A stretch of DNA of 64,000 nucleotides from Blasia pusilla (GCA_050084515.1 CM114271.1:43834001-43898000); one strand, 5' to 3'. Counted from the stretch's first letter, positions 26,201 through 61,554 are shown. Notes: generated by a model from the sequence alone, not told the origin. Made by a program: numbers and translations.

Positions 26201-28559
26201 ATGGCAGAGACCTCTGGTGGTAGAGGGCCACCCAGCTTTAATCCCACAGTGGAGTTCTTACGACAGTTGGGGAAGAGCTACCAAGATGTACACACCGACA
26301 AGCTGAAGAGTCTACAGGATTTTCAGCGACGATCGGGTGAGAGTGTGAGAGAGGCATTCACGCGCATGAGGAGGTTGATCATTGCTACTTATGGAGTGAC
26401 TAAGGTGCATCAGTCCAATATTGGTATGGGGTTCTCGACCGAGAACTACAGAGGAGAGTCCGAGATGCGATGTTGATTCACACAGCGAAGCCTCCATTGA
26501 AGGTGGTCTTCAAGTTGTCTGAGCGTTTTGAGCTCAACATGAGTAAGGAGCAGGTAGTGACCGCTGGATTTTCTCGAGAGTCGATAGGTCTACGAGCGAC
26601 GGTGATTCTTTATGTGCCACAACGAGCACCTGTACCACGGGAGCGGGCCAATGTGCCCAAAGAGCAGGGCGGGTACCGTGAGCCTATGAGGCAACGACCC
26701 GTACTTGCATATGTTGCCCAACAGGGACCGATGTTGTCTTGTTGGACGTGTGGAGGGGCCCATAGGCAGACAGACTGCACACAACATGGGAGAGGACCAT
26801 GAGCGCCTCCGATTGCTCAAGAGCCACAGAGGATGGCCCCACTAGAGTATCAGTGTGACTATTGCCACAAATATGGTCACACTAGGGATAGATGTTTTGA
26901 CCTTCATCGAGAGGCACGTCCAGAGGTAGGCCGAGGGCTTGGGGGCAGTCGTACTGGAGGAGGTTGGGGGAGTTCTTCCTAGACGTGGTGCTAGAGGACC
27001 ACCACCAGCCAGAGGAGATAAAGCAGGAGCACCAGAGCTGGCACTTCTCTCACACATCGATCAGTTGGAGAAGAGGATTGCTGCCATGACGATGATGCAG
27101 CTCAGGGAAGGCACGAAGCGGCAAGCAGCTAGTGTGGCTCCAAATTCTACCTCTTACCCTGACCCGGGTGAGGATCTCGCTAGTATGGGGTTTATGTGTA
27201 GTGCAACTCAGGTTAAGGCGGTTGCAGTGGTGACTCGGGGTGTTGCAAGACGCACTGAGCCATCCAGAGGTCAAGTTGAGATTGACCCATTGTAGGAGAC
27301 CGATGGGCGGCAGGCCAAGGTTCCACAGTCATTCACATTGTTAGAGGCACTACACACACCATCGATGGTACCTCGACGACCAGCGGTGCCTACAGGTCAG
27401 GAAGGTATGTCGACGTCATGAGGAGTTGGAGTGAAAACTCCTATCTCGGCTCGAGTGGAGTCAGTGTCGACCATAGTGTTAGAGGTGGCCACCAGAGTGA
27501 GCCAGACTCCGCTATTTTCCGCCATAGAGTTTGCGACGTTGGGAGTTAGACCAGCTGAGGTGTTTTGACTGGCCGCCACATTGTGTGAGCGTGGAAAGGT
27601 GATTGCTTCTTGTTCAGAGGTAGTTGAGGAGGTGGTGGACTTGCCCTCAAAGCCGGTGCTCGAGATGTCTCCCACAGAGTCATGGCATGCGGCAGCGGCG
27701 ATGTTGGTAGATATGCCAGCTCGAACGGCCATAGAGCAAGCAGTGGTGACACCTAGAGTGGTGTTACCGGATAACCGAGTTGGAGTATTTTGCTTGGTTA
27801 GTTCGACGGGGATAATATACCACCTGGAGCGTGTCCTACTTGATTCGGGAGATCAACCCTTGATGTTAGGGAAGACGGCATGTTTAGCGTTGGGGTTACG
27901 GAAGGTCGACATTGAGCCTTGTCCCTTAATGATACAGACCTCGATTGGGGGCATGTCACCCACGCTGTATATGACTTGACAGGAAATAGTTTTCAGAGTC
28001 CAGCCAGAGCATGCGATGGATAGTGCTATGGTGCGCACACGTGCAATTATGACACCAGCTGAGTCGTACAATATGTTGGTGAGGAGTACAGTGTTATATC
28101 CCCTAGGATTCATCCTTGACTTCTGGGAGGAGACCATTGCTTCTTGGCGAGCGTGGTGGTCAAGTGACGGCCGGATGAGTCAACTACCCGTGCAGTTTGC
28201 GGGACGAGGTGGTCGATCATGAGATGAGTCTCTGACCACGTTGGCATCTTTCACATGTAGTGTTATCTGGCCAAGAGAGTTGTTGGAGGGGAACGCACAT
28301 GCGGAGGATATCCCAGTAGCGGATAGTCCCACAGAGAGACAGGCCATGGCGGGTGCCTCTTCCCATGTTGGCGAGAGCTCTTCACCATTGTGGGGTACGA
28401 CTCGAGAGCTACAGAGGAGTGCCGACGACCTTGTGAGGCAAGCGTGGAGTCATGCCTTTATCCCGGAGCAGCGAGAGTCACGTGGCGATCGAGCTCCTAG
28501 AGTGGAGACATTGACCCCACTGGATACCACACTTGTTGTGTGGCAGTGTCTAGAGGAGG

Positions 28560-30520
28560 CTGTTAGGGTGTTAGATCTCTTTGGAGGGATTAGCACCGGA
28601 TAAGCTGCAGTATTGCAGGCGGGCATACGGGTGCATTAGTACCTTTATGTGGAGAGAGATGAGATTGCGCGGCGAGTATCATTATGTCACATAACAAGAT
28701 TGATCCAAAGGTATCTTGAGTTGTTGCCGGTATCTATAGTACGGGGATATCAACATACACTACCCGCCGCGCGACATCTCTTTGGTGGGGGCACAAGATC
28801 TGGATAGAGTTAGCACCATTAATTTGGTGATTGTTGGATGGCCATGTCACGGTCATTCATCAGCTGGCCGAGGGTTTGGATTGCAGGATCCGAGGTCAAG
28901 GATATTTTGGGAGATGCTGCGAGTAGTATGACACTTGCAGGAGAGTCAGACATGTTCTCCGGCATACATTTTGGAGAACGTGCCGTTGTTGGGAGACAAT
29001 CGTGCACGTGTGATGACGAGTGTGCATCAGGTGAGGTCCTGGTTGGGACCTGCTGTGTTGTTAGATACAGCGTGAGTTGGATCACGCGCCCATTATCCAC
29101 AACTGTGGTGGATGAACTTCATACCATCAGAGGTACTGAGTCAAGCATACGATGTCCAGAAAGCACCACATATGTCGTGCGCCTACTCTCCTTGAACGTC
29201 AATCTCTAGTATTAAGGAAGCGTACGTTCAGTTGGACACGCTCTCATTGCCGACCTGCACCCAAACACGCACTCTCATTAGTCAGCTTTGGGTCAGTCAC
29301 TCATCCAACCCACCGAGTATTCTACTCAGCGTCTCATCAAGCTCAACCCTCCTTGCTTTCTAGGTTCCAAACACGGCAAGTCCTGCAAGACTTGGAACAG
29401 ACTTTCTGGTTAGTCCAGGAACCTAAAACGGCACTTACGCGCCTGGCGGTCCCAAGTGTCCAATGGACCTTGTGCGAGTTCCTAGCCGAGACCCAAGTAA
29501 TTGAGTTGCAGGTTGGAATCCAAGAGGGATGTCTAAAATCGCCTCACTAGACTTGGTTCAAGTTTTCAAGCCCAACTCCAAACTCTCGATCCGTTCCATG
29601 CCCTTGAGCCGCCCCGTGGCGCCCAAAGTGGGGTTTGAGTCCCAAACACCCTTGGAGACCTTCCCCCTTACTAGTACTTTGGGAGATCTCCAAACACCCC
29701 CTACCTTTGGAAAAAGATGGTCGAGCCCTTCATTGTGGCCCTCAACCTGATTCTACTTACAGTCGTTTTTGGGTTGTTTCTCAGCCGCTGCTTATGCGTT
29801 TTCAGAGATCTTTACTACGTTTGAACTAGCTTTCTATAAGCTTTCCAACGCGTCCTTACTCGTTCCAAACGCATCTTGGCGCTAAAAGTTATGGCCATAA
29901 ATATAGTCGGAAACTCTCAAACGCTGGTGGCGTCCCAAATCCGGATTCCTTCCTTTGGCAACCCACTTCCTAGACTTGACTCCTCTCAAGTCTTGATCCG
30001 CGTTTGGTCCAGGTTTCTCAGTCGCAACCACAACATATGAAACGCGAAGCCTCGCTTGCGTCTCGTCTCTTGTCTCTTCTTCGAGACCACTCCAACGCGC
30101 AAACCATCTTAGCGTGAGCCCGCTAATGTTCCGATGTTCTACTTTGGCACTCGGTTGGTCATGAGGATCGTGACAACATCTCATAGTGGATGCTATTTTA
30201 GGCTCAGGGCGTCGATCTCAGGTGGTGATGCGGGATGATAGACCACCGTTGGCGATGGCCAATTGGGTGGGGGAGTTGAGGGCAGCCTCACCTACGCTGG
30301 TGAGCTTCCCATCATCCCATGCCTTTCATCGGGGAGGGCCACGCATGATTTGGGATGAGGTGACCCGAGCAGTGGAGGAGCCTATTGCAGATGAGCGTGA
30401 GCGCGCCATGGGGTTTGCTATAGGTACTACGGCGGTGCCAGGTATGACTGAGGCATCCCGGAGACAGGTGTTGGGGCAGGCGGTGGACCTCACCTCTCTC
30501 ACATGGATAGTCACCCTAGG
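28560..30520 (+). pseudogene. C5 cytosine methyltransferase domain of copy B, interrupted by a solo LTR
   Basis: VRVLDLFGGISTG, LVIVGWPC, DPRSRIFWEMLRVV, YILENVP, then after the 29173-30175 insertion ERERAMGFAIGTT..RRQVLGQAVD. Confidence 0.88.
29173..30175 (-). mobile_element. ~1-kb solo LTR (family X) inserted in the MTase domain of copy B
   Basis: Reverse-complement homologue of 3264-4295. TSD ACATA/ACATC. Confidence 0.88.
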
Positions 30521-33500
30521 AATGGCTGAGGAGAGACGGATGCGAGTGTCATCCATGCCGTCACGTCCACAAGTTGGACCATTGCCTACAGGGTTTGTAC
30601 AGGCATTGGCGATTGCCGGATGAGGAGAGACAGGCACCCATGGACTTCTTGGGGCGTCGTTCGAGTGGAGAGTGCGAAGGCGGCCAGAGCAATACATGTT
30701 CATTTTTTGGATGTGGAGCATGGGGTAGGAGGTCAGAGTGGAGTGGTTGTTGCGGAGGTGGCTAGAGTTGCTACATAGCAACCAAAGCCGGAGGTTGCGT
30801 CCTCTTCGAGTGAGGTCACGATGAAGACTTGGGAGCTTGTGATAGGTCTCAAGTTGATAGGAGGAGAGCGACGGCAAGTTCATCGGTTTTTGAGAGGGCA
30901 TGTTAGTTGTTTTTCCTTCAATATGAGAGACTTGGGTACGCTGAAGGGTCTCGGTATACGGATTGAGTTGGCTAGTGATACGCCGATCTTTTGTCGACCC
31001 TACAGGTATTCTAATATGGAGCGAGCCTTGATTCAGAGTAGGAGTGAGGAATTTTGGAGGCAAGACTTGTGGAGTTATCACATGGGGAGTATGCATCCGC
31101 CACAGTCATGCCGGCGAAGAAGGATATGTATGGCAATTGGACGGATAGGGGGATGTGTGGAGATTACCGTCCTATCAACCGAAAGACGAGGTCAGACGTA
31201 CTCGGTTAGGGGTCGCCCATTCCAGTTACATACGGATTGGAGCATGTTGGGTCTAGGAGCAGTGCTTACTTATAGAGATGACAAGGAGAGGGAGTTCATT
31301 TTGGATTACGCAAGCCGATCAAACAATATTGCAGAGGCAAAGCACAAGTCCTACAAGGGAAAGTGCTTGGCTGCAGTGTGGGCCGTGGCACAATTTAGGT
31401 GCTATTTATTCGGTAACCCTTTAATACTTATCACTGATCATCAGCCGTTGAGGTGGTTGATGGAGTCCGACAAGCTTACGGAAAAGCTTGCCATGTGGGC
31501 TCTATTACTACAGGAGTATGAGTTTGAGGTGGTTCATAGGCCAGGTCGGGCTGAACTAGGATGCGGATGGATTGAGTCGTAACCCATATCCGAGTCAGAG
31601 AGACCACACAGGAGAGAAGATGGCACGGAGAGAAGATGGTGCCTGGTTGGCATGCATCTGCTTATCTTTGTTGGTTGACTATGGTAGGTCAGCCATAGGT
31701 GATGACTCTAGTGGTGGATTTGGATGATGAGTCTTTGGATCCGAGATCAGTGAGGAGGCGACGGGTGGTCGTGATATCCATGACGACGTGGAGGTTATGG
31801 AGTTCTTGCGCACTAGCGTCATAACGAGCATAGTGAGTGTTAGGGAGCGGGATTGGATCCTACAGAGAGCTAGGAGGTTCAGGTGGGAGGGGACTCATAT
31901 TTTGCGGGTATGGGGAGATGGTAGGATACGAATGGTACCTCATCCTTCCCAACAAGCATGTGTAGTATGACATGCCTATGAGGAGTTGGGGCATTTTGGA
32001 GTAAAGCGTACTTACAGCTTACTCCAAGTTGAGTATTGGTGGCGCGGCATGCATATTGGGGTAGAGCAATTAGTGGCCAGATATTTGGTATGTGAGTGCG
32101 AGTATCCTTCAATGCTCCCACTCCGCACTTACATCCTTTTCCGATTATGGGTTTAGGTTATTGGTGGAGTTTAGACTTTGCAAGACCTTTGCCATTGACG
32201 GGGCATCATCATAGGTACATTTTGGTCATGGTGGAGCATTTCTCCAAGTGGATAGAGTTGGTGGCACTATCGGACAAGGCAAGCAAGGGAACAACTTATG
32301 CGTTTCTAGATCGTGTGCTTAGTCACTTTGGTGCACTGGCGGAGGTATTGACTGACAAGGGTACCAAGTTCAGGGGCGAGTTTCAGGCCTTGTGTGATCA
32401 GGTGCTGATAGATCACCGCACCACGTCCACAGATCATCCTGAGGCGGATGGATTGGCGAAGAAAGTAGTACAGATGGTGAAGAGAGGATTACGTAAGTAT
32501 GGCTTGCAGTGGGGACAGTTGAGGGAGTGAGACCTACAGTTGCCATGGTTGGCTATGGGTTATCGCTTTAGTAGACATGCATCTTTGGCGTCATTTTTAC
32601 CGTACTTTTTGCTCTTCGGGAGAGATCCAGATTTACTTGCAGCTATTCGACGTGACATGGCGGAGGTGTTAGATCTTGATGATCCAGATGTGTGGGTATA
32701 AGCGTGTTCTCATATGGCGGAGATTTTTCGTAGAGTCATGCCTATGGCCTTTGAGAACTTGGCTATTGCTCAACATAGAGATACATTGAGGTACGCGACC
32801 ATTCGTGGAGGAGGTTATCGTCCAAGGATTAGGAGGTTTCATCCTGGAGATTACGTGTATTTACAATAGGCGGCATCCACGACCCTAGATATCACTGCAT
32901 GGCGCACAATCCTACGTGTGCACGAGGTATTACCGACCGAAGTCCTCTTGTTGGAGGGACGGGATGGTATGGTTTGGAAGGATCATGTGCATAATTGTGC
33001 GCCATGTCATCTTCTGAACGTAGACGGGATAGTGGATCCGAGCTTGGTAGTGGTACCTGCAGGCTTGAGGTGTATGTTGTGCGGATCTACGAGGGGTGCA
33101 GCCACCATGTTGGTATGTGATGGTTGTTCTCAGGGGTGGCAAATGTCATGTTTGACCCCCCCCCCTCCTTCTTGATGTAGTTCTCACATGACAATGGATG
33201 TGTCTGAGATGTATATAGGGTAGTAGGTCATGTCAGAGAGATATGATATTGTCTATCTGGAGTTAGGGAGATCCAACTGCCAGCTAGGGGGGCGGTTGTG
33301 TGATCTCCATATATATGTATGAGTTGATTTCTGTACATGTGTGGATCTACCCGTGTGTGGGGAAGATCAGTGTTGTGTGATGTAGATGTGACCAGCGATG
33401 TATGTTGTATAGCGATATGTATGCGCACGACAGTTGTCACATCTGAGTAGCCGATAGGCCGAGATCTATCGTGGATAGGGCGTAAGAGCCAGCGGAGTAT

Positions 33501-36500
33501 CTTGAGTGTAACTTTGTCCCACGGTGTCGGATGAGGTTGAGGATAGGTTCATTGTGTTAGGAAGGTTTTTTCTGATAACTTTCCTGTTGAGGTATTTCAC
33601 AACCGGGTGACTTGTTGACCAGGTCACCCGCCCCTAGTAACCTGTGCATGTAGGTTACCAAGAGGATAGCTTTTTTTAGGGGAAGAGCCTTTTGGCTCTT
33701 CCCAACCCTATATAAGGGAGGAAGATGGCTTTCCCAAGCCATCATTCTCATGTTGGGCCATTGGAGCACCCGTCTTGTATGTGTGTGAGATAGGACTAGG
33801 GTTTTAGCATCTAGGTTCCTTGATAGCGTAGGATGGACAAGGCTCGATATGTCGATGTAGATTGAGGAGTGGAGTTTTAGGCTGGGTGTGCTATTTTTAT
33901 TACTCTTTAATTTTGTTGGTGATCTCTATGTATATGTATGAGTTGATTTTTGTACATGTGTGGATCTACCAGTATGTGGGGAAGATCGGTGTTGTGTGGT
34001 GTAGATGTGACCAGGGATGTATGTTGTGTAGCGATATATATGCGCACGACAACCTTTCTACCTAGTGGGAGTGAGGTGAATGACCATGTGTTATTCAACC
34101 TCATAGATTCAAGCTCTTGTTCAATTTCATCCTTACAGTGAAATGCTTGCTAGCCAAAGAGAGCTTCTTTATAGGTCTTAGGTTCTTTAATATGGACATG
34201 CTTCTCTCATTGACTCAATAATCCATGAGTAAACTTCTCCTTCTCTAGATTCCTAGGGAGTGACTCTTAATGGGCTACATCATATTTCTGCAATAGACTT
34301 GAAACCCTTTTACATCTTCTTGTTCCAACACTTGCTTATGTTGGATTTTTATTGTTGGACTCTATTGAACAATTTTTGGCTTCATCTAAACTTGTTTCAG
34401 TACAACATCAAGAAATGTGTTATTTTTTGGAATCATAATAACATTCGTACTCGTGCTTGGAGAAGAAGGAATTAGTGCAAAAGCTTTACATCCAAAACTT
34501 TTAATGTGATTAAGAACTAGAGGGTCTTTGTGCCAAATCTCATAAGACGTTTTATGACCCTCCTCAACCCTTTTTGGTGCTCACGTTGGAAATATGTTTT
34601 GGAAGTTTTTTGCTCTTACTATCAATTCTCTATGCCTATAAGCCTTTCCAAGACTTCATTGTTCTAGCATTACAAGTATACTACAAGTCGAAGTTTTACT
34701 TTTCCTCTAAGTTACTCCATTATGTTATGGAGTGCGGGGGATTGGAAATTGAAATCGGTGGAAAGATATTCTCCTCCATTATCACATCTTATCAAATTCT
34801 ATTTTTTCTCCCTCACTGGTTGTCTACTAGAGTTCTTATAATAGAAACTTATGAAATACTTTGGATTTCTGCTTTAAAAGATACTTAAAAAAATCATCTA
34901 TGAAAGTTAAGAAATATCTTGCTCTGCTATATGCACATGTGTTTAAGAGTCCACAAACATCATAATGTACTAAGCCAAGACCATCTTCAGCCCTCTTACC
35001 ACCATCTTTGGGGAATTTTTCCCTTACTTGCTTTAATTGGATGGATGCGGTGCAAATAGGAAAGTCATCAATGTCTACTCCCTTGTTTTTGAAATGCTAT
35101 GAGTCTGTCTTGGCTGATGTAGTAGAGTTTCTCATGTCATAATCCATCATTAGTTGTTATAGGGAGAACAATGACGTCCTTGCATGTTGATTTTTTGCTT
35201 GATTGCTAAGGTGTTATGGATTCACCTAATATATACAACTTGTTCTTTGATCTACGAATTGCTATTTTTACTTCAACTTTGTTGTTGAAGGTATAACACG
35301 ATTCTTGATTGTGATGTGTCCTTTTACTTGATCAAATTGATCCACTAAGAATTAATTCCTCTTTAGACTACAAACAAACAACACATTCTGGGATAATAGT
35401 TTATACTCCATTCAACAACGTACTTGATGCACACCGATTGCATTCCTTGAATAAACAAGGTTGTTTCATCTCCCACATACACCATTGATCGCTTATTTAT
35501 ATAACTAGCTTGAAACCTGGTAAATGTGTTGAGGTCATGAGCCATATGTTGAGTAGCTCCTACATCCTCATACCAAGTTATATCTGGAGTACTCAAGAAA
35601 ATTAGGGTTGTTTCATAGACTATATAGCCCTAGACTCTTACTAGAGTCTACCTCTATAGCTTTGGACTTAGCTAGAGAGGCAGAGTTATAGTAAGTAAGG
35701 CAATAAAAACAACATATATCTGTAAGGAATGTGATATGCAACGTAGAGAGATGACAATATCTCTTTAAAGACCTGGGGCCTCTAGATTGTGCCCTTCCTA
35801 GAATAGGATCTTATCGTACACAAAGCAAACGAAATTCATGTCCAAAAGTATTGAGTCACTAACAAGTGACATCTGTCACTGACACATTTGACACATATGT
35901 TGTGAGTCAACAGAATGACGTACCTTGCAAACACATTTGTGTGTCAATTGCAAGCTCAGTGCTAGTCGTCATAGTTACAGTGACAAAACTGTTGTTCATA
36001 CTTGCAATTTTTTTTGTTTTGCGGGAGGGGGAGGGTGTGAAGTCAGAATGGAGTCATACAAAGTGGATAGACATTAATTGGCAGTCGCAACATACTAGCA
36101 AAGTAGTTTCTCTTGGCCAAAATGGACTCAAAACGGAGGCGTGTTAATACCTCAATCCCTTATTGTGAAAAGCCTCTAGAGATGAAGAATGGGCCCATAG
36201 GTTGGTGAAAAGGAAAATAAGGATGATTCATTGGTAAATGAGATACCGACACTAGTCAAAGGAAGATCCACTTGCTATTAGAAGGAAATTAGAAGGAACC
36301 ACTTTAGATAAGGGTATATGAAGCTATTCTTTCCATATTATGCTTATCCTTCAATATATCAAAGAGGATGAGAGGTGTTAAGAAACATTTCTACCTTGGG
36401 TTTCCTTAGAAGACGTCTCAATGAATGGGCAAGTATGGTAATAATTATTGTGGTGTAAGAGCGTGTGTTAGATGGCTCATCCGTGACTAAGAAATATAGA

Positions 36501-47832: not shown

Positions 47833-47932
<100 letters not shown>

Positions 47933-49670: not shown

Positions 49671-49688
49671 AACCTTGCTCTGATACCA
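49671..49688 (-). promoter_or_regulatory. Primer binding site for initiator tRNA-Met
   Basis: TGGTATCAGAGCAAGGTT on the minus strand, 1 nt after the 5' LTR. Confidence 0.92.
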
Positions 49689-51796: not shown

Positions 51797-54700
51797 TGTC
51801 GTGCGAATCCACATCGTTGACATACCATACTCACATACATACATAACATAGACGAGAGCATACACAAACACAAGTGTACCACAACTGAAATCCGTGAAAG
51901 ATCTACTGTCATAAAACACAAATAGAATCACATACAATCGAGCCAAACCCACTCCACGATGGGAGAATCCAGGTCGAAGCTTGCGGGAACCATCATAGCC
52001 AAGAGCTCTACTCACTACCAAGGCTAACTCCCAACGCAATAGGCTCAACTCAAAGAACTAACTTTTCTTTGAGTGCACTCCATACTATATCTTCCAACCT
52101 AAGAGCGGGCCCTACTGGAAAAGTCACCCTCAACTGAGTAACCCCCAACCTTATGTATGAAACCGCATCTCTACCTAGACACTACGGCCCTACATGAGGT
52201 ATGGCCTCTACTAGCACACTATACTCTACGACATAATCCGTATGGTCATGACAATTGTCGTGCGAATCCACATCGTCATACAATATAGATTGCTGACATA
52301 CCATATTCACATACATACATACATAAAATATACGAGAGCATACACAAACACAAGTGTACCACAACTCGGCCCCCTAAGTGACGGTTAGGTCCCTCTAACT
52401 CCCAGGTAGCCCTATACATCTACTACATGCTATACATCTTCTTGGGTGCACGAATCAGAAGGCCGGGTGCTAGGTTGCCCCATCGTTAGTCTCCTATGTG
52501 TAATCCATATCACGCAAAGATCAAGTCATCTACCTCTCCTAAGTACATCGAGGACAAACCCACCTTCCAATAGGAACAACATCCATACGTGGAGTCAAAC
52601 ACATCATGTGCCAACCCCTAGAACACCGATCACACACCAACATACGGGCTGCGTTACCAGCAAACCCACACAACATGCACCTCAAGCTAGCACGTATCAT
52701 GGCTAAGCTTGGGTCAAGAGTACCATTCACATTTGAAAGATGACATGGTGCACAATTACGCACGTGGTCCTTCCAAACAACTCCATCACGACCCTCGAAC
52801 ATGAGAACTCCAGAAGCTAACATCTCGTGCACTCGTAAAATAGTGCGGCCTGCCGTCACATCCAATATTGTCCATGCAATCTGCTGCAAATAGACATAGT
52901 CCCCCACATGGAACCTACGAATCGATGGTCGATAACCTCCACCCCGAATGGTTGCATACCGCAAAGTATCCCTGTGTTGAGCAATGGCAAGATTCTCAAA
53001 GGCTGTTGGCATAACTCTACGAAAGAGCTCTGCCTGCTGATAACACACTCTCATCCACATCTCTGGGTCATCAAGGTTCACCACCTCACTAGACTTCCGA
53101 CGAATTGCTGCGGGCAAGTCTGGATCTTGGCCGTATAACTGAAAATAAGGTGAAAAGGAAGCCAAGGATGCTTGGCGATCGAACCTATACCCCATGGCAA
53201 ACCATGGCAAATCGAATATCCCAATCTCCAAGATGCGCGTCAGAGGCCATACTTGCGCAATGCCCTCTTCGCCGTCCTGAACCACACGCCAGCCAAACCA
53301 TCCGCCTGGATGATCTCGAGACGTGGTCCGATGATCAATCAACGCCTTGTCACACAAGACCTGAAACTCACCCTAAAACTCTGTACCCTGGTCGGTCAGC
53401 ACTTCAGCTGGTGCACCAAAATGACTAAGCACTCTATCAAGAAACGCATACGCCGTTCCCTCACATGCCTTGTCAGGTAATGCCACCAACTCAATCCACT
53501 TGGATAAGTGCTCCATCATGACCAACACATATCGATGATTTCGTACAGTCAACAGTAACGGTCTCGCAAAGTCCACACTCCAACGATAACCCAACCCCAT
53601 AATAGCCAAGGGGTGTAATTGTGGTGTAGGGGCATTGAATGATGCCCCCATCCGGTCACAAACCATACAACGTGACACCAACTGATGCACCTGAGTATGC
53701 ATGCCACGCCACCAATACTGACCAAGGAATAAGCTATACGTACGCTTTATCCCAAAATGTCCCAACTTCTCATGGGCATTTGCACAATTCGCTCTCTCTG
53801 AGCCAAATACGGCACTACTCGTACTCTACCATCCCCCCACACACGGAGAATATGTGTTCCCTCCAATCGATACCTCTTAGCACGTTGAAGAACACGGTCT
53901 CGCTCCTTGGCACTCACTATGCCTGGCACCCTACTGGTCCGTAGGAACTCCAACACCAACGCATCATCATGAATATCACGCTGATCCGTACCACCATCTC
54001 TAACCTTAGGATCTGAAGGCTAGCCATCTACCCTCTGACTAGAGTAAGATGTCATGTGGTCCTCCATACTAGAGTCCCCTAACCAACATAAAAAGGCGGA
54101 TGCATGCCAACCTCGCACCATCTCCTCATCAACCTCGCCATGCCATCTAGCCCCAGTTGCATCTTCTTGGCTAGTACATGGGTTCCTACTCAACCCATCA
54201 GCATCAAGGTTGGAAACTCTAGGTCTATGTACCACTTGCAAGTCATACTTCGTTAAGATAAGAGCCCACCATGCAAGCTTCCCTGTAAGCTTGTCAGACT
54301 CCATCAACCACTTGAGCAGCTGGTGATCAGTAACAAGGGTAAATTGTCTGCCAAACAAGTAACACCTAAAGTGTGCCATAGCCCACACTACTGCCAAGCA
54401 CTCTCCCTCATATGAACTGTAGCGTGACTCTGCTGCATTATTCGAACGACTTGCATAGGCCACCACAAACTCCATGTGCTCATCATCATGTTGTGTCAAC
54501 ACCGCTCCAAGTCCCAACCTACTCCAATCAATGTGTAACTGAAATGGGCGCCCTCTGATAGGTCTCCTCAAGATAGGCGCCGCCACCAATTGGGCCTTGA
54601 GCTCCACAAAAGCTCTCTCCTAATCATCTCCTCAGTGCCACTCTTGATCTGATTTCAGCAATTAGTTCAAAGGCTTTGCCATAGCACTAAATCCCTTCAC

Positions 54701-57700
54701 ATACCTCTGATAGTAGTTCGCCAATCCCATGAATGCCCGAACTCTGCTCACATCTACCGGACGCAGAATAAGTGCAATAGCCTCCACCTTTGCTTGCTGA
54801 ACTCCCAAACCACCTAGATAGATCACATGACCCAAGTGCTCAACATCCTCATGGAAGAACTTACACTTCCTGGATGCAAACGTAGACCATGAGCTTTCAA
54901 CCGCTCAAACATAATCTGCAAATGTATCTGATGCTCCTCCACCGTGTTACTGAATACCAAGATATCATCAATGTAACACCGAACAAAATCCAACCCTGCT
55001 AGGATCCTGTCCATCACTCTTTGAAACTCGGCAGGTACATTCTTCAACCCAAAGGGTCAGAATTTCCACTGGTACAAACAATCCTTGCCATGAGAGTTGA
55101 CACCCCAAAATGCTGTCTTGGCCTTGTCACTCGCCCGAATCGGCAATTGATGGTATCCTGCCCGAAGATCCAAAGTACTGAAAATCTTTGCCTGTCCCAC
55201 CACATCAAAGATCTCCTCAGGTGTAGGCATGGCATACATATTGGCCTTCGTTTGCCGATTCATAGGAAGGTAATCTCCACACATCCGCCTATCCGTGTAG
55301 TTGCCATGCATATCCTTTTTAGCAGGCATGACAGTGGCTGATGCATACTCTCTATGCAACAACTCCACTAATCCACCCTCCAAAAGGTCCAACGTGCTAC
55401 TCTGAATCAGGTCCCTCTCCATATCACTATATCGGTAGGGACGACGGAAGATTGGCGTATCACTAGCCAAATCAATCCGTATACCGAGTCCAACCAAAGC
55501 ACCCAACTCCTTCATGCTAAAGGCAAAACAACTCCTATAAGCACGTAGGAACTGTGTTAAGCGTCGTTTCTCACCACTCGTAAGCTTGGGCCCAAGTAAT
55601 GGCTCCCAAGTCTCCTCCACTGGCACACTAGAGGGAGAGGATGATGCCATTGGCTGCTATGCAACCCCCTCACAAGATGGTACACCCTTAGCTACACCAT
55701 CATCTGAGCAAATAATTCCTCCACCAGCATGAGCAACCAACTCCACATGCCCAGCCATAACATCTCATTTACTCCAAGGATGCAAAATACTACTTTCCTC
55801 GGCCCCAGCCGATGCCTCTACCATCTCGGTAGCCATCGAACTCATTACAAGGGGTGGAAGACCCACAAACATAGTCCGAAGTCGACGCTGCTCGGCCATA
55901 CCAAGACTCAAAATCCAAGTCAAACAATTCAGGTCCATGGCCTAACCCAACACATGACGTCGTGAAGCCTTAGAAATGGAAGCAACCGCTATCACGCCAG
56001 TAGCAAATCCCATTGCACGCTCTCTCTCATCAGCGTTAGGCTCCACCAACTGTCGCACATGAGAATTCCAAACAAGCCCGGGACCACCTTCCTATAGGCA
56101 TGTGACGAGGGAAAACTCATAAATTTGGGTAGTGCCATCCTAGGCTGGCCCACACAGTTCACCACTGCCATGGGTGACCGATCAATAACCCTCACCACTT
56201 GAGAAAGTCGCCCAGTATCCAAGATACTATCCACTGTAAGGCAAGGATCCTGCTGCAGTGCATCATATGCTCGACGTAGAACCTCCCTAGGCAAAAAGTT
56301 TGTCCACCACAAACGTGGACGATGTGCACGCGAGCCAACTCGCGCTGCATCCAACAACACCGCTGGTCCAATCCAAGACCGCACCTCATGAACACTCGCC
56401 ATCATCCGGGTCCAAGTGTCACCCAACAATGGAACATTCTCTAGAATGTAAGCTGGAGCATGTGCCTGATGAACCCGAAGATGTTGTAACACCCGTAACA
56501 TCTCCCAAAACAATCGAGACCTAGGGTCGTGTAATCCCTCATCACGACTAACACGTGTATGATCCTGACATGGCCATCCAGCAATCACCAAATCCACAAG
56601 ACCAACCCTCTCAAGGTCCTCCGCCCCCAACAATGCAATGTGTGACGGCAAAGCACGTTGGTACCCACAAATAGCTGATGGCGGCAACAACTCAGGATAT
56701 CTCCGCATCCACTGACCAATATGTCGGGATGAGACTCTCTGGGCCGTTTCATCTCATTCCACATACACGTTTCTCCGCATAGGAATATCGGCCTGCAACA
56801 CTGCAGCCAAACCAGTGCTAATCCCACCAAAGAGATGTAACACACAAATGCCCTCCGGCGGATACTGCCATACAATGGGTGTAGTATCCAAAGGGGATAA
56901 CCCAACTGGACCAGAAGTAGGAGTCCGCCATGGGGCCTCCTCTTCCTCGTGAGGTATAACAACCTCACACCAAGCCTCCTGCACCAGGCGATCAGCCTCC
57001 TGCCGTAGTGCACCGCCTGAACTCCAAAGTGGCACATCCAACGATGAGGATGCCATTGCTGCAAAACTAGGGACCTCCTCTACCTCCTCATGCACAGGAG
57101 AATCCATAGCATAAACATTACCCTCCAAAAAGTCTCTTGGCCAAGTGACTACTCCACTAAAACCAGCCACAGATGCTAACACTGTTGGGGAAGAACCTCC
57201 TGGTCGAGCCCCATAAATAAATCTCACAGGAACTTGGCTCATACGTCCATCACCGGACTACCAACCAGATCTATAAGATGCTGTCTCAGTCCAGTAATCC
57301 ATCTGAAAACCCATCGGGTACAATACTGCTCCTCCAACTAGTACATCATACGACTCGGATGATGTGACCACTACAGGTACTCCCAACCGGGAGCTATCAG
57401 TCGCATGATCTGGTCTCAACTGTACAGAGAACTTCTCCCGTGTCATGAATTGAGACCTATCATTGGATCCTCCAAGTGATGTTTGAATCTAGAATGGGCA
57501 AGGCTCAAGCTCTCACCTCCGAATACCCAAACCAATACATGCCGCTTTTCCCAACATCAAAGGTTGGGCACCCGAGTTTAACAAGACTCTATCTGGTCTA
57601 TACACCTGTCCTGTAGGACTCACCAATCGGAATATCCCACTCCGGTTGTCCAACATACATACACCAGGTGTAAGCCTCTCATGATCAATGGCTAGCCGGG

Positions 57701-60700
57701 CTGGTAATGCATCCATCTTTGTCGCTGTTGCCTGCCAAGTAGCATTGGTACTCAATGCTATACCTAACATAGAGGGTTGCTCCACTGCAACACCCTCATC
57801 CACCTCAGCTTGTGTAGCAGTAACACCCCCACGTTCCCACAACGTGGATGCTAGCTGAAATACAAGAGCTAAGTCAACTCCTAAAGCCATCAGCTCCGTG
57901 GCCGAAAACAATGGAGATCCCAACACTGAAGTTGCCATCCGCAATATTGCACTCGATGCTGCATTCGTGTCTACTACACGCAATGTAGATGCCTCAGTCC
58001 CCACTGTCGGCTCAATAGGCTACGTAGGAACCATGGATGGAGTCCTAAGCACCTCAGACAACAAGAATGACTGGGAAAGCCTAGCCTGCCTCCCAGCCTC
58101 ACCCCTCTGTGGGTCCAACTCCAGAGTAGCACCACGTGGCTTTGACGCTCGAGTGGCTCCTCTCGTAACTGCAGCTGATGCCTCAACCTGTGCTGCACTT
58201 GCCATATAAGAGAGATCATACCCTCCATAAGAGGTGGAAGCCCCTACTCCCAAACCTGATCTAAGCTGGATACTAGCCATAGTAGCCAACTTTTGCTCCA
58301 ATTGCTCAATCCTGGCAGCCATAGCTGACTCTGTCGTAGTGGTAGGGGTAGCCACTGTAGGCTCTCCAACCACTGGTCCACCTCTACCATCCCTACCACC
58401 TCTACCACCTCGGCCTCTCGGAGCTACTCTACCACGGCCGCGGCCTGATCTCAACTCTGGATGAAGATCAAAGCAACGCTCTCGAGGATGAGCTCGTCTC
58501 CCGCAATGATCACACTGAGTTGGGCCGGACTGAGGCCCGTCCTCCAAAGTCCATCTCCCATCCTCTTGGGGACAAAACTTCCTAACATGATTACCTCCAT
58601 ATGTCCAACATGACTATCCTTGCTGCGGGGCAGCAAATGAAGGCAATGGTCTCTACGCAAGTGTCCCTCTAGGACCTGACTGAGGTCGTGTGTATCCCCC
58701 ACGACTCCCACTACTACTACAACACTGTGAGATGGGCTGCTGAACACGAGAAGTAGTAGTTGTATCCCTACTTGATGCGGATGTCACCACTCTCTCCTTC
58801 ACCATGTTAAGCTCAATTTTCTCAAATAGAGCAAACACATAAGTCAATGTGGGTGAACCATCACTCATAAGAGTAGCATCACGTACCCTGCGGCGCAACT
58901 CTCTATCCAAGATCCCATACCAAAACTGGATTGCCTGAGCCCCGTCACACCCTGGGTAACTCAAATCAAGCGTCGCATACGAGTGTATGCCTCACGAAGA
59001 CTCTCACCAGTCTTTCGCTCAAATTCGTGAAGACTCCTCAACTTCTCTGTCTTCACTCCCTGATAGTTCTTCTTCAACCTCTTGAAGAACTCTGCAACTG
59101 GGTTGAACGATCGTGGGGCACTAGTACCTCCATTGGTATCCCCACTCCGGCTCGTACTCGTACCACTCAACGTCCGGTTGGTTGGCATAGTAAGAGCACT
59201 ACTACCAATACCACCATGGGTCATAGACACATAGCTTGGAGACCAATATTGTCTCCACGCCTCAATCTTAGCAACATGGTCCTTCCTAAACTCATGGTAA
59301 GCATCCATGGGTGGTCCCTCCAAGTGCTGAAACAACCCCTTCCAAGCCAAGAAGGATGTAAACAACGTGGCATTCCGCAACATCTGCATATCACACCACG
59401 TATTAAACTCCTGCATGAAGTCCTCCAACTCAATGGTGCCCACTACACCGAGTATTGTCGTGGGCCCTTCATGGCCGCATATATCCCGTCCATGTCCCAA
59501 ATCAATGGAGCTGCAACACTCGATAACAACGTAGAAGACTCGGTGTTTGGAACACCCTCGTCCTCCTCTTCATCAACCGTCGGAAGTGGAAAAGGTAGCC
59601 GAGACCTCAATCCAATCCGTGTGAAACCACCACTGTCCGCACCACGTTCCCCAACCAGACCACCAGACAGCTCCGTGATGACCAACGCCGATGCCGCACC
59701 ACCACAAATTACCACCACTAAGTAACCAAGTGACGTCGATGTCGTTGTACTATTCTAGCTCTACTAGCTATGGGTGTAGGCAACCTAACCTGTCAGCACC
59801 ACAAGAAGCCTCCCACGGTCTACTCGTCATCACTCCAGCCTCACTACCGGTAGCACACAGGAGTAATACTACTCTGGAAATCAGCGTTAACCCTAACAAT
59901 GGGCGCGCAAGCAAGAAGCAACGATGGAGGAGATCCAAACACAGAAGTCCAACAACAATCCTCCAATCGCAAATGGAACTCAAGGTAACACAATCCACCA
60001 AACGTGGCGCCCCCTGAATCCACAAAACCCACCATACAATTCTAACGCAATAGCTACTCCGCCGCGGGTCGATGACATGCTAATGGGACTTGCAGCACCT
60101 GAAAATATCACCTGCATGGAGAGGCTACACCGTACTATGCGCTAGAGGTCCATCAACCAAAAAACTTGAGATGCATAAAGCGCCTAACACATCTCCGAAT
60201 AACACCAAATGAGCTACACCAGTGTGTACACTAGCATAGTTAAGAACTCAGCAGTTAAGCTCTAGGAAGAATAGCCCAAATATGGGTGACCAGTTATGCA
60301 ACACTCAAATCAAAAATCCTACAAAAACTGTCTCACGCCCAAGCAAGCAAGCAAGCTTGCTTGCTTGCTCCTTGCTCCTTACTCCGCCTCTCACGCCCAC
60401 TTGCCCCGAGCTACCACCAGTTGCCTCGGAGCCTCAAAACGCCGAGACATGCCCCGTTCGCCATGCTTCGCTATGGAGAGAGGCCCAACCAGGGCGCCCC
60501 CAACGGGATAGGCATCTCCAACAACGAATGAGTCACCAACCAACCAGCCCCTCCGATCCGCTGTCCGCCATAGCCAGACCTTGAGCTAGTCCGCAAAATT
60601 TTGATTAGCAATTACTGCACAAATCCTCAACCAAAATTGAATCTGTTTCAACCAGAGTTCAATTGACCACCATAGCTATCTCTCCACAAAAAATCAGCTA

Positions 60701-61554
60701 CAACCAAGCTCTGTACTCCGAGCTAAAAATCAGACAAACTTGTTGTCCATACACCTCCAGAATCGCATATCCGACAGCGCTTCTGCCCAAATTCATGCAC
60801 GCAGAAATCCGCAACGCTCCACACACTCGAGCAGATAGCTTCACATGAGATCACAATACAAGTAGCAATAGGAACCTCTCACCTGATTTGGATGAACTTC
60901 AACAGAGCTTCCGCACTCCAAGCTCTCCACATCTGAAAACGGTTGAACACGAACCAGAATCTTCAATCCTTGATAACTTCCAACTCCCTTGACAAAATCC
61001 GGCGATCTAAAGCGCATTGGAAAGCTCTCAGCAAGGCGCTTCTTTCCCAACCAACCACATACCAGATTCCCACCTCCAACATAGGCCACAAGCCACGAAC
61101 ATCCACGGCTGAGTACACAATCAGCCCTAACCAGATCCTACTGATCCACTATCGAAGCTACCATCGATCTACTCTAGTTCTTTGAGTGAAATCCGTGAAA
61201 GACCTACTGTCATAAAACACAAATAGAATCACATACAATCGAGCCAGATCCACTCCACGATGGGAGAATCCAGGTCGAAGCTTGCGGGAACCACCATAGC
61301 CAAGAGCTCTACTCACTACCAAGGCTAACTCCCAACGCAACAAGCTCAACTCAAAGAACTAACTGTTCTTTGAGTGCACTCCATACTATATCCTCCAACC
61401 TAAGAGCGGGCCCTATTGGAAAAGTCACCCTCAATTGAGTAATCCCCAACCCTATGTATGAAACCGCATCTCTACCTACACACTACGGCCCTACATAAGG
61501 TATTGCCTCTACTAGCACCCTATACTCTACGACATAATCCGTATGGTCATGACA
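51797..61554 (-). mobile_element. Split-direct-repeat DNMT/PHD gypsy-type retrotransposon (copy C, most complete, same subfamily as A)
   Basis: A1 61187-61554, PPT 52366-52377, B1 52256-52365, A2 51886-52253, B2 51797-51885. gag 58020-59500 with CCHC knuckles and RGG, protease ~57250-57600, MTase 55900-56860, RT with YIDD 54823-55650, RNase H 54020-54607, integrase+PHD 52539-53765. About 16 differences in 368 bp between A1 and A2 by manual count. Confidence 0.95.
55900..56860 (-). pseudogene. C5 cytosine DNA methyltransferase domain of copy C (DNMT3-like motif order)
   Basis: ICVLHLFGGISTGLAAVLQA..YVE; DLVIAGWPCQD; DPRSRLFWEMLRVL; YILENVP; DAARVGSRAHRPRLWWTN; motif IX/X region after frameshifts. 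Confidence 0.92.

Follow-up and report, generated by a model that had tools for sequence, protein, structure and literature searches.

Two of the three Ty3/gypsy-type retrotransposon copies in the window (the whole 64,000-nucleotide stretch of Blasia pusilla DNA that was analysed) carry an integrase open reading frame (ORF) ending in a real in-frame PHD finger. The reading that we favor, with a probability of roughly 55%, is that this finger is the integrase C-terminal PHD of a streptophyte element of the Gypsy-DNMT3 kind, and that it would tether integration to chromatin in which histone H3 is unmethylated at K4. The three copies, named A, B and C, are all dead. Their fingers were located as follows.

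52545..52679, minus strand: PHD finger of copy C (Pfam PF00628, E 6.6e-10; translation; AlphaFold2 pLDDT 91-96)
4765..4899, minus strand: PHD finger of copy A, intact C4HC3 (Pfam PF00628, E 1.6e-10, 41.3 bits)
33071..33166, plus strand: decayed PHD finger of copy B (Gln in place of the His; early stop codon; final Cys pair in another frame)

The minus-strand frame 52539-53825 of copy C encodes the integrase, then LRCMLCGFAGNAARMLVCDRCSRGWHMMCLTPRMDVVPIGRWVCPRCT and a stop. The finger lies within the interval 52539-52690 singled out by an earlier sequence-only reading, and is directly followed by one Thr and the stop codon. It is of the C4HC3 type with a Gly two residues before the His, and its translated end, RWVCPRC, contains the conserved Trp two residues before Cys7. 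PF00628 matched residues 232-276 of the 277-aa ORF at 52539-53372 with 39.3 bits, against a cut-off of 24. The AlphaFold2 model of this finger was confident and superimposed on solved PHDs with an rmsd of 0.6-1.4. The C4HC3 finger that the sequence-only reading placed at the integrase C-terminus is therefore present in copies A and C; in copy B, where that reading had also placed it, it is no longer an intact C4HC3. There, the sequence runs into a stop after CLTPPPPS, the W-x-C-x-x-C end lies in a different frame, and the Pfam match is partial (profile positions 1-32 of 47) and below the cut-off at 22.5 bits.

Since all three window copies are broken and the finger of copy B has decayed, the feature could be a relic without function, or a Cys/His pattern that arose by chance in dead copies. 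This is hardly credible: the Pfam scores in copies A and C are well over the cut-off, the model is of high confidence, and 221 of 240 relatives, some as distant as 34-40% identity, retain all eight zinc ligands. Of the 120 best homologues, 115 have PF00628 listed, and the full C4HC3 was found in 111 of the 120 listed homologues and in 110 of 120 further cluster representatives. A family alignment of 38 sequences shows no variation at seven of the eight zinc ligands, at the Trp before Cys7 or at the Pro of the preceding loop; the eighth ligand and the Gly two before the His are nearly invariant. The Trp two residues before Cys7 was found in 105 of 111 relatives. The finger is deeply conserved and is no chance match.

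Among named proteins, those of Marchantia polymorpha and Calypogeia fissa come closest (70-73% identity), and Klebsormidium proteins stand at 44-48%; the host of the elements is probably a liverwort. At E<=1e-30, 292 representative clusters make up a large green-lineage integrase-PHD clade, and the integrase-PHD of the window falls into one tree with volvocine and Haematococcus proteins. The clade has two main branches, chlorophyte-like and streptophyte-like. In 55 of 111 relatives the PHD has more than 200 aa behind it, as is usual in the chlorophyte-like branch, whereas it is terminal in the window copies. The integrase-PHD fusion is not new; it defines a large, old clade of the green lineage, with algal and bryophyte members.

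The PHD directly adjoins the C-terminal barrel of the integrase, which is the place of the chromodomain in chromoviruses. The earlier suggestion that it replaces a chromodomain is borne out as a positional statement only. Chromodomain PF00385 gave no match at E<=0.01 in the integrase-end ORFs of copies A, B and C. Moreover, of the best 150 cluster representatives, 145 have a match that extends to query residue 273 or further and so takes in the PHD, and therefore no chromodomain-bearing sister group was revealed among these 150. A search for the nearest PHD-less lineage in the ESM Atlas (P0004 residues 150-1030, PHD clusters excluded) returned generic Gypsy Pol clusters only.

The finger belongs to long elements whose domains and terminal repeats were mapped in the three copies.

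51797..61554, minus strand: whole element, copy C, A1-internal-B1-A2-B2 (self-BLAST and terminus mapping; domains by tblastn with P0018 and P0124)
61187..61554, minus strand: repeat A1 of copy C, 5' end, starting TGTCATGACC (95.7% identical to A2 over 369 bp)
58473..58514, minus strand: gag CCHC zinc knuckle of copy C (motif scan; tblastn with P0124)
55888..56849, minus strand: Dnmt3-like cytosine-5 methyltransferase (MTase) of copy C (Pfam PF00145, E 2.3e-8)
54871..55608, minus strand: reverse transcriptase (RT) of copy C (tblastn with P0018 residues 446-697, 49% identity; weak Pfam RVT_1)
54023..54619, minus strand: RNase H of copy C (Pfam PF17917, E 8.4e-34)
52680..53825, minus strand: integrase of copy C, with H2C2 zinc domain, rve core, SH3-like C-terminal barrel and linker of about 25 aa (PF17921, E 9.7e-13; PF00665, E 2.3e-9)
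52256..52365, minus strand: repeat B1 of copy C (terminus mapping)
51886..52253, minus strand: repeat A2 of copy C (self-comparison)
51797..51885, minus strand: repeat B2 of copy C, 3' end, ending CGCACGACA (terminus mapping)
2964..12856, minus strand: whole element, copy A (90-96% identical to copy C)
9516..9530, minus strand: retropepsin-like LDSGA motif of copy A, candidate protease active site (motif RVLLDSGAQPLML)
7846..8644, minus strand: Dnmt3-like module of copy A (tblastn; Pfam PF00145, E 2.1e-8)
24191..34051, plus strand: whole element, copy B, on the A1..B1-A2-B2 plan (exact 5' terminus uncertain)
28767..30518, plus strand: Dnmt3-like module of copy B (tblastn pieces 28767-29147 and 30261-30518)

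The domain order is gag-CCHC-(protease)-Dnmt3-like MTase-RT-RNase H-integrase-PHD. The order of Pol, with RT, RNase H and a DDE/rve integrase, together with a CCHC gag, places the elements in the Ty3/gypsy type; no Pfam match was obtained for the protease, which is visible solely as the conserved LDSGA motif, kept in 8 of the 9 Marchantia-type proteins examined. Copy C contains in-frame stops (one of them in the integrase, at 53373-53375) and frameshifts. Its gag region, at about 58943-59493, gave a weak Retrotrans_gag match, and its integrase barrel corresponds to the beta strands at residues 159-209 of the AlphaFold2 model. The A2 repeat of copy A is interrupted by a nested insert at 3264-4296. 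Copy B belongs to an older, different family, with about 72% nucleotide identity to copy A; its A1 and A2 repeats are 89.3% identical.

The terminal repeats are split: copies A, B and C show the arrangement A1..B1-A2-B2 and not two equal LTRs. In copy C, a purine-rich, PPT-like stretch, AGGGGGCCGA, stands just before B1, and the palindrome GACAATTGTC lies at the B1-A2 junction. B2 was considered as flanking DNA, and this was rejected, as B2 follows A2 in all three copies of two families. No primer binding site was identified, and the window contains no tRNA gene. The termini are TG...CA. Copy A is flanked by a target duplication of 4-5 bp, (A)GATG, none being evident in copy C, and a related solo insert has CACT on both flanks. 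From these termini and target duplications, insertion is of the integrase type. Assignment to the DIRS retrotransposons, which have a tyrosine recombinase in place of a DDE integrase, was rejected: rve and Integrase_H2C2 are present, and so are target duplications.

The sequence-only reading had proposed a methyltransferase in the same element, and a Dnmt3-like module was indeed found in copies A, B and C. In copy C it shares the frame of the RT and retains the motifs PCQ, ENV and AHRPR; its best solved relatives are DNMT3B and DNMT3A (E 2e-8). In copy B, a nested insert of about 1 kb (29173-30176) interrupts the module. Among chlorophyte-like members, 31 of the 34 with at least 450 aa upstream of the integrase have the module between RNase H and integrase; three members with enough sequence have no module and keep the integrase region, and part of the module is visible in 10 shorter rows. 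Streptophyte-like members have it N-terminal of the RT, as seen in three of the four rows reaching more than 820 aa upstream, in the three window copies and in the Marchantia proteins P0121 and P0125. Near-full modules retain the catalytic Cys in 38 of 43 cases and the EN motif in 39 of 43. P0057, P0065, P0075 and P0084 have lost the catalytic Cys or the EN motif, with the PHD intact. The Dnmt3-like module and the PHD are thus co-inherited through both main branches. PF00145 is listed in merely 6 of 120 homologues, which might suggest a PHD older than and independent of the MTase; this idea was rejected, since a family-specific HMM finds modules that Pfam misses.

The closest published elements are KnitGypsy-Dnmt3, or Gypsy-DNMT3 (de Mendoza 2018, PMC5890265), which likewise have a Dnmt3-like MTase with its key motifs inside the Gypsy Pol ORF. 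Their repeat arrangement is described as DIRS-like (legend of Fig. 4c, PMC5890265), and A1..B1-A2-B2 in the three window copies is comparable. The domain order and the DIRS-like split repeats therefore indicate that the window elements are relatives of KnitGypsy-Dnmt3. They differ in the host, which is here probably a liverwort; identity is 44-48% with Klebsormidium proteins and 70-73% with the liverwort proteins. The word PHD is absent from the main text and three supplement files of PMC5890265 (figures apart). Gypsy-DNMT3 is named again in a recent preprint (available text of 10.64898/2026.05.21.726589).

The class of the finger was assessed from its residues, its solved relatives and its modelled fold. 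PHDs that read H3K4me3 (ING/BPTF/TAF3 type) have a cage Trp two residues before the zinc-binding His. As the sequence-only reading had stated, this position is a Gly in the window (SRGWH in copies A and C); of 221 family fingers, 205 have Gly there and none has Trp. The finger has no methyl-lysine aromatic cage and does not belong to the H3K4me3-reading subclass. In the accessible part of the AIRE study (Org 2008, PMC2261226), the cage elements of ING2 and BPTF are replaced by D297 and the small A317, and the aromatic cage is absent from K4me0-reading PHDs.

A PDB sequence search returned 131 sequences at E<=1. The best 60 of these include CHD4, KMT2C/D, DPF2/3, ATXR5, PHF12, KDM5A/B and WSTF, as well as PHF21A/BHC80, BAZ2A/B, KAT6A/B, UHRF1/2 and AIRE; ING, BPTF and TAF3 are not among these 60. 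PHD-only matches in Foldseek included the ATXR5 PHD-H3 structure, BAZ2A with an unmodified H3K4 peptide, DPF3b, MOZ and BHC80. The highest target TM-score among single-PHD matches was that of ATXR5 with unmodified H3 (5vab; TM 0.84 by target, rmsd 0.9 over 49 columns, 43% identity). Judged by sequence and modelled fold, the finger most resembles solved readers of the unmodified H3 N-terminus; this agrees with the type proposed by the sequence-only reading.

In the available text on ATXR5 (Bergamin 2017, PMC5499861), the K4me0 pocket is narrow and formed by main-chain carbonyls and Leu37, A1 is held by Pro60 and Gly62, and R2 by Asp41 and Asp44. In phmmer, positions 4-52 of copy A pair with 4-52 of 5vab, and this match is therefore probably ungapped. 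On this alignment, the finger appears to retain the Pro-x-Gly loop, the Asp after Cys3 and the hydrophobic beta-1 strand of ATXR5; copy C has VPIGRW for the loop and CDRC for the Asp. One of the two R2-binding Asp residues would be a Ser in the window finger. The acidic K4 contact of the AIRE D297/BHC80 type is absent from copies A and C, which have a Leu two residues before Cys1, and the position is acidic in 1 of 111 relatives. However, ATXR5 uses main-chain carbonyls, and therefore an acidic contact to K4 is not universal among K4me0 readers.

The finger could bind something other than K4-unmethylated H3 and still tether or regulate the integrase. Candidate ligands are the H3 tail whatever its K4 state, in which case the finger would be a general nucleosome anchor, or else the tail of H4, a lysine in an acylated context or a host factor that is not a histone. 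The best sequence matches of copy A are the PHDs of KMT2C/D, and another PHD of MLL3/4 binds histone H4 (available text of PMC6318328). UHRF1, also matched, was solved with both unmodified and K4me3 peptides, as well as with PAF15 and Stella peptides (entry titles); a cage-less PHD therefore need not discriminate between K4 methylation states. Besides the missing acidic residue before Cys1, the window fingers lack the acidic patch after Cys2: they have no acidic residue between Cys2 and Cys3, where 78 of 111 relatives have 2-4. Against another ligand stand the match to ATXR5 with unmodified H3 and the conservation of the Pro-x-Gly-x-Trp loop and the Asp after Cys3, which correspond to H3 and R2 contacts of ATXR5; in the 38-sequence alignment, the loop Pro is invariant and the loop Gly and the Asp nearly so. 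We regard a different ligand as rather unlikely.

Targeting to H3K4-unmethylated chromatin, as deduced from residues and relatives of the finger, is plausible. After reverse transcription, the integrase-PHD in the pre-integration complex would bind the free N-terminal tail of H3, on nucleosomes without K4 trimethylation, and integration would be tethered to non-promoter, silent or TE-rich chromatin. The logic would be that of the chromovirus chromodomain, via a different histone mark. Chromoviruses also carry a histone reader behind the integrase barrel, which is presumed to steer them away from genes (Gao 2008 as cited; available part of PMC3350952); they differ in the reader, which is here a cage-less PHD, with no PF00385. 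Chromodomain-guided integration, and the idea of a like role for TE-borne PHDs, are described in PMC6673714, PMC9940879 and 10.1101/2021.11.30.470311.

PHD-bearing Gypsy elements are known from Chlamydomonas: REM1 (Perez-Alegre 2005, as presented in citing papers) and Gypsy-7a_cRei (PMC9940879). Compared by description, they share with the window elements a PHD in the Gypsy Gag-Pol, for which the authors suggest targeted insertion. Among 86 new insertions of Gypsy-7a_cRei, intergenic ones were 2.6x more frequent than expected (PMC9940879). The activity of this element in laboratory strains of Chlamydomonas makes the idea of targeting directly testable. It also resembles the window elements in that the end of the right LTR is missing from the left one, by 8 bp in Gypsy-7a_cRei and by the whole B part here; its domain legend shows no MTase. 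The sequence-only reading had also cited the insertion of copy B into another TE. The right flank of copy B supports this, but the support is confined to that flank, and TE-in-TE nesting in the window can stem from post-insertion selection.

The finger might instead serve the Dnmt3-like MTase of the element, and not (or not only) the integrase. It would then bring the MTase to K4-unmethylated nucleosomes or gate it, possibly while Pol is still uncleaved, and the new copy or its vicinity would become methylated. The pairing of PHD and MTase throughout the clade, the retention of most catalytic motifs and the Dnmt3 type of the MTase speak for such a coupling; shared ancestry alone, however, can give co-occurrence. 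Moreover, the two domains are separated by RT, RNase H and integrase in the streptophyte-like branch or by integrase alone in the chlorophyte-like branch, and the MTase does not occupy the same place in the two branches. The retropepsin-like DSGA motif is present, and therefore Pol is probably cleaved. The three chlorophyte-like members without the module keep their integrase region. Furthermore, the four relatives that lost catalytic motifs kept the PHD. In the tethering reading, the MTase would be no obligatory partner of the PHD but another epigenetic module of the lineage, under its own selection. Altogether, we consider the coupling quite unlikely.

In DNMT3, the ADD is a composite GATA-like and PHD domain that lies beside the MTase and autoinhibits it. 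DNMT3A/3B/3L are similar to the window product in that a Dnmt3-type catalytic domain and a cage-less zinc-finger reader of the H3 N-terminus occur in one product. The sequence-only reading had proposed a mimicry of this ADD-MTase logic: both modules do occur in one element, but the finger is a plain PHD about 1100 residues from the MTase. No ADD was found beside the MTase; only PF00628 and NSD-type PHD models match, and no DNMT3 or ATRX ADD is among the 60 PDB matches listed. The plain PHD, the gap, the RT, RNase H and integrase within it and the protease motif make the analogy loose, and an ADD-like coupling of PHD to MTase is speculative.

Another parallel is offered by the PHD-SET proteins ATXR5/6 of plants (PMC5499861, available text), in which a single protein combines a K4me0 reader with a writer of heterochromatin; that writer, however, is an H3K27 methyltransferase of a cellular protein. 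The same text reports that the related ATXR5 PHD binds its own catalytic domain and lowers the Km for the cofactor, and that it adds little to nucleosome binding and tunes the catalytic domain. This fits the coupling of reader and writer and speaks against tethering. The accessible part of de Mendoza 2018 (PMC5890265) further reports that retrotransposon DNMTs perform de novo CG methylation. One might also suppose that the PHD and the MTase act as a unit, as a co-inherited cassette in which the PHD would place the complex on K4-unmethylated nucleosomes and the MTase, gated or positioned by the PHD, would methylate the new copy. The co-inheritance of this cassette is observed here; its joint action is a proposal, which we rate as improbable. 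If true, a transposon would here carry its own version of the logic known from DNMT3 (ADD-MTase) and ATXR5 (PHD-SET). EpiLTRs, as described in the available text of 10.64898/2026.05.21.726589, are also LTR retrotransposons with a chromatin reader and DNA methyltransferase(s). They differ from the window elements in combining a chromodomain with an adenine MTase and a cytosine MTase, the latter being the sister of DNMT4 rather than a Dnmt3-type enzyme, and they belong to different lineages (Cymbomonas, Euglena).

Gypsy elements with PHD fingers have been published before, and so have Gypsy-DNMT3 elements; the finding is therefore less novel than first thought. The window adds a liverwort-type member to the Gypsy-DNMT3 elements. 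The clade links the Gypsy PHDs of Chlamydomonas with the Gypsy Dnmt3 capture of Klebsormidium, and in the literature searched neither this connection nor the PHD-Dnmt3 pairing across both branches was found in print. Reader and writer thus travel together in one clade that holds both. Transposon-borne chromatin readers and DNA-methylation writers illustrate that mobile elements use the host epigenome and do not merely suffer it. If the PHD does steer integration, integrases would have, next to the chromodomain, a second natural tether that reads histones.

CpG observed/expected ratios were 0.57-0.68 in the copies and 0.33-0.9 in some flanks. Some flanks are depleted at least as strongly as the copies, and the depletion therefore says nothing specific on self-methylation.

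The family is alive, and sense-strand family RNA exists. Three RNA runs of the same species were mapped on copy C, divided into 30 bins: 4289, 4117 and 4553 reads matched at >=90% identity (that is, at least 90%), over all 30 bins. First mates were almost exclusively on the plus strand, which in most stranded libraries indicates sense-strand element RNA. Just 25-31 reads per run were >=99% alike, and the RNA therefore comes mainly from copies other than copy C. RNA 3' ends piled up at position 52093 in A2, with 26-29 molecule ends per run.

Self-comparison of the window revealed three elements of ~9.8 kb each, referred to as copies A, B and C. Copies A and C are 90-96% identical, and copy B represents a separate family with ~72% identity to A. 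The elements and the PHD (C4HC3 zinc finger) domains of A and C lie as follows.

2964-12856, minus strand: copy A (self-comparison)
about 24191-34051, plus strand: copy B (self-comparison)
51797-61554, minus strand: copy C (self-comparison)
52545-52679, minus strand: PHD of copy C (PF00628), residues 232-276 of the 277-aa ORF 52539-53372
4765-4899, minus strand: PHD of copy A, the same finger as in C (PF00628, E 1.6e-10)

Translation of the minus-strand frame at 52539-53825 in copy C gave a retroviral-type integrase, followed by a linker of ~25 residues, ...LRCMLCGFAGNAARMLVCDRCSRGWHMMCLTPRMDVVPIGRWVCPRCT and a stop. Pfam detected the finger at E 6.6e-10 (39.3 bits; cut-off 24), and Integrase_H2C2 and rve were called in the ORF just upstream. 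The PHD observation of the sequence-only reading is thus confirmed. The finger, claimed for all three copies, is an intact C4HC3 in A and C but decayed in B, where Gln replaces the zinc-binding His, a stop comes next and the final Cys pair is in a different frame; this copy matches only profile positions 1-32 of 47 of PF00628, with a score under the cut-off.

Mapping of intact relatives onto the copies, together with Pfam, gave the domain order: gag with a CCHC knuckle, retropepsin-like LDSGA motif, cytosine-5 methyltransferase (MTase), RT, RNase H, integrase and PHD. Copy A contains the LDSGA motif, as do 8 of the 9 Marchantia-type proteins that were inspected; Pfam detected no protease. The nearest solved structures to the MTase ORF of copy C are DNMT3B and DNMT3A (E 2e-8), and motifs PCQ, ENV and AHRPR are retained. 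A Dnmt3-like module was found in all three copies, bearing out the proposal that PHD and MTase are encoded in the same element.

In PHD fingers that read H3K4me3, a cage Trp sits two residues before the zinc-binding His. This residue is Gly in copies A and C, as had been noted, and in 205/221 family fingers; Trp was found in 0/221. A PDB sequence search returned 131 matches, the best 60 of which were all cage-less fingers (CHD4, KMT2C/D, DPF2/3, ATXR5, PHF12, KDM5A/B, WSTF, PHF21A/BHC80, BAZ2A/B, KAT6A/B, UHRF1/2, AIRE, ORC1b and others), led by KMT2C/D; ING, BPTF and TAF3 were absent from these 60. A copy A query gave the same picture. In the AlphaFold2 model of the 277-aa ORF, built from a 45-row alignment, the predicted finger had a pLDDT of 91-96, and the SH3-like barrel preceding it was also confident. 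Foldseek matches to single PHDs included ATXR5 with bound H3 (rmsd 0.9, 49 columns, 43% identity), BAZ2A with an unmodified H3K4 peptide, DPF2/DPF3b, MOZ/MORF, UHRF1 and BHC80. Sequence matches and predicted fold therefore both support the proposed assignment of the PHD to the cage-less, unmodified-H3-tail class rather than to the H3K4me3 class.

For the whole model (52542-53372), the top Foldseek matches were the Tudor+PHD proteins PHF1, MTF2 and UHRF1 TTD-PHD, over ~130 columns with an rmsd of about 15. The predicted integrase C-terminal barrel and PHD resemble such proteins in domain make-up, but not in geometry.

Bergamin et al. 2017 (PMC5499861) describe K4me0 reading by ATXR5 through a narrow pocket of main-chain carbonyls and Leu37, with Pro60 and Gly62 holding A1, and Asp41 and Asp44 holding R2. 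Mapping onto 5vab (copy A 4-52 against 4-52, probably ungapped) suggests that the Pro-x-Gly loop and the Asp following Cys3, which are invariant or nearly so across the family, are retained in the window finger, and that Met and Val would lie on the beta-1 strand and Ser at the second Asp of ATXR5. AIRE-PHD1, according to Org et al. 2008 (PMC2261226), lacks the ING2/BPTF aromatic cage, with D297 and the small A317 taking the place of its elements. The D297 position holds Leu, with no acidic residue, in the window fingers. The window copies lack acidic residues between Cys2 and Cys3, where 78/111 relatives have 2-4, and a different MLL3/4 PHD binds histone H4 (PMC6318328). The missing acidic residues, the lead of KMT2C/D and the H4 reading of this other MLL3/4 PHD argue against clean K4me0 reading. 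We infer that the PHD may have a targeting function and may be coupled to the MTase.

Querying with the integrase-end ORF of copy C retrieved 165 proteins at E<=0.001. Among the best 120 of these, PF00628 was present in the precomputed Pfam column for 115, and a complete C4HC3 was found by pattern in 111. The best named matches included Marchantia polymorpha (72% identity), Calypogeia fissa (50-66%) and Klebsormidium nitens (44-48%); Haematococcus, Pleodorina, Volvox and Tetrabaena matched at about 38-43%. In an exhaustive search through 1.84 billion cluster representatives, 292 reached E<=1e-30 and 912 reached E<=1e-10. The alignment reached query residue 273 or beyond in 145 of the 150 best representatives, and the full finger was found in 110/120 new ones. 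With the MTase ORF as query, proteins of Marchantia polymorpha (17 of 30 matches), Calypogeia and Sphagnum showed 58-71% identity, and a distant match was found in Closterium. From these matches, the window's host is probably a liverwort.

A FastTree analysis of integrase plus PHD (123 rows; outgroup, the window's other Gypsy element; SH-like support only; one long-branch warning, P0079) separated two branches. The three window copies fall in the streptophyte-like branch (46 rows, support 95) with the rows from Klebsormidium, Calypogeia and Marchantia; A and C are sisters that adjoin Marchantia P0002. The chlorophyte-like branch (75 rows, support 99) includes the volvocine and Haematococcus rows. 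In 55/111 homologues (e.g. P0057, P0065, P0071, P0104), the PHD is followed by a tail of >200 residues, in most cases 250-430. This tail is typical of the chlorophyte-like branch; in the four homologues checked, it had no Pfam match.

PF00145 was recorded for 6 of the best 120 of the 165 homologues, a count from which the MTase might be taken for a late add-on. This was ruled out by a family HMM built from 14 modules, which found modules widely; Pfam fails to detect most of them. In the PF00145 members, the ~600-aa stretch between RNase H and integrase can be aligned over its whole length with most of the long chlorophyte-like members. Among chlorophyte-like rows with >=450 aa upstream of the integrase, the HMM placed the module between RNase H and integrase in 31/34, the exceptions being P0060, P0088 and P0111; 10 shorter rows contain a partial module. 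In the streptophyte-like branch this position was occupied in 0/26 rows with >=450 aa upstream. There the module lies N-terminal of RT in three of the four rows reaching >820 aa upstream (P0018, P0079 and P0022, not P0020), and also in the window copies and Marchantia P0121 and P0125. Modules of the two architectures match each other at E about 1e-31 and have the consensus C-terminal motif ePnadErEramGy.tG.T in common, which suggests that a single MTase capture was followed by relocation within the polyprotein. The catalytic Cys is present in 38/43 near-full modules and EN in 39/43. In P0057 (Pleodorina), P0065, P0075 and P0084 (Tetrabaena), all volvocine-type, the MTase-like module persists but its catalytic Cys or ENV motif is lost, and the PHD is intact; such loss may explain the absence of an MTase from the domains given for Chlamydomonas Gypsy-7a_cRei. 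Many near-full chlorophyte-like modules (P0035-P0118) carry E-C-Q or A-C-Q in motif IV instead of the usual P-C-Q.

PHD fingers have already been published for Gypsy and other TEs: the PHD is "a common accessory domain" of C. reinhardtii TEs (PMC8557442), Gypsy-7a_cRei has one and may target its own insertions (PMC9940879), TE-PHD fusions have been surveyed (10.1101/2021.11.30.470311), and Ginger1 transposases, relatives of Gypsy integrases, can terminate in a PHD (PMC2836005). Streptophyte Gypsy-DNMT3 elements have likewise been published (PMC5890265, PMC12344493 and 10.64898/2026.05.21.726589). The last source also describes reader-plus-writer "EpiLTRs", whose reader is a chromodomain. Full-text searches yielded neither a link between PHD and Gypsy-DNMT3 nor a report that the MTase module occurs throughout the PHD-Gypsy elements of chlorophytes; they did not cover figures, Repbase, the Craig 2021 thesis or bioRxiv supplements, which may hold either. 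The element is a liverwort-type addition to an already known kind, and what merits further study is that PHD and Dnmt3-like module are paired across the clade.

Stops or frameshifts occur in every copy, and repeat-pair identity is 95.7% for C, about 96% for A and 89.3% for B; all three are old, dead insertions. They are bounded by split repeats.

51797-52365 and 61187-61554: split repeats, copy C
2964-4586 and 12490-12856: split repeats, copy A
24191-24638 and 33295-34051: split repeats, copy B

Instead of two equal LTRs, all three copies follow the plan A1-internal-B1-A2-B2. The element ends are TGTCATGACC... and ...CGCACGACA, with a target duplication of 4-5 bp at copy A. TG..CA bounds both repeat parts, 2-nt spacers (CA-GT-TG and CA-AT-TG) occupy the A2-B2 and B1-A2 junctions, and the palindrome GACAATTGTC is found at the B1-A2 junction of copy C. 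A PPT-like purine run precedes B1, from which ordinary LTR reverse transcription is expected to yield [B A]-internal-[B A]; the origin of B2 is unexplained by this route. The split repeats match the DIRS-like repeat structure that de Mendoza et al. 2018 (PMC5890265) attribute to KnitGypsy-Dnmt3, together with the domains of a Gypsy element.

Three RNA-seq runs from the same species gave 4289, 4117 and 4553 reads at >=90% identity to copy C, covering all 30 bins. First mates fell almost only on the plus strand (depths about 20-180 vs 0-17), an orientation that in most stranded libraries denotes sense-strand RNA of the element. Only 25-31 reads per run were >=99% alike to copy C, and most of the RNA thus derives from other copies: the PHD-MTase family is transcribed, and transcription is not assigned to the window copies themselves. 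Molecule ends piled up at 52093, inside A2 of copy C. Two RNA junctions (copy C coordinates) are transcripts of internally deleted family members: 53011-54016 (16, 29 and 42 reads per run), whose two sides are separated by 9 other letters in two or more of the three runs, and 52929-59408 (5, 5 and 6 reads), a deletion type that retains the gag start and the integrase-end/PHD part.

The window is rich in TEs, and three ~1-kb inserts were also found.

43059-50042, minus strand: further Ty3/gypsy element, 352-bp LTRs, 96% identical
34389-35629, minus strand: decayed Copia-like Pol (Pol_BBD E 2.2e-7; weak SH3_retrovirus E 0.0018)
39606-40163, plus strand: DnaJ-domain open frame (E 1.4e-13)
3264-4296, plus strand: ~1-kb insert 1, inside the repeat of copy A
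29173-30176, minus strand: ~1-kb insert 2, inside the MTase of copy B
48212-49213, plus strand: ~1-kb insert 3, inside the PHD-less Gypsy element

The further Gypsy element encodes a Ty3 capsid, protease, RT, RNase H, integrase and an SH3_Tf2-1 end, with no PHD, chromodomain or MTase match. The DnaJ frame probably represents a host-gene exon lying between TEs. Copy B had been thought to be inserted into another TE; the Copia-like remnant lies 0.3-1.6 kb to its right, but nothing was detected on its left, so only one flank agrees. The TE-rich setting fits integration into silent chromatin and fits equally well the survival of insertions in gene-poor DNA, between which three copies do not decide.

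The ~1-kb inserts all sit within other LTR elements and are 73-87% identical to one another. They begin TGTC(G/A)CG.. and have the same kind of termini (TGTC...CGACA); inserts 1 and 2 terminate in GCGCACGACA, and the end of insert 3 is decayed. CACT is present on both sides of the insert in copy A. These inserts resemble solo "A+B" repeats from a related family.
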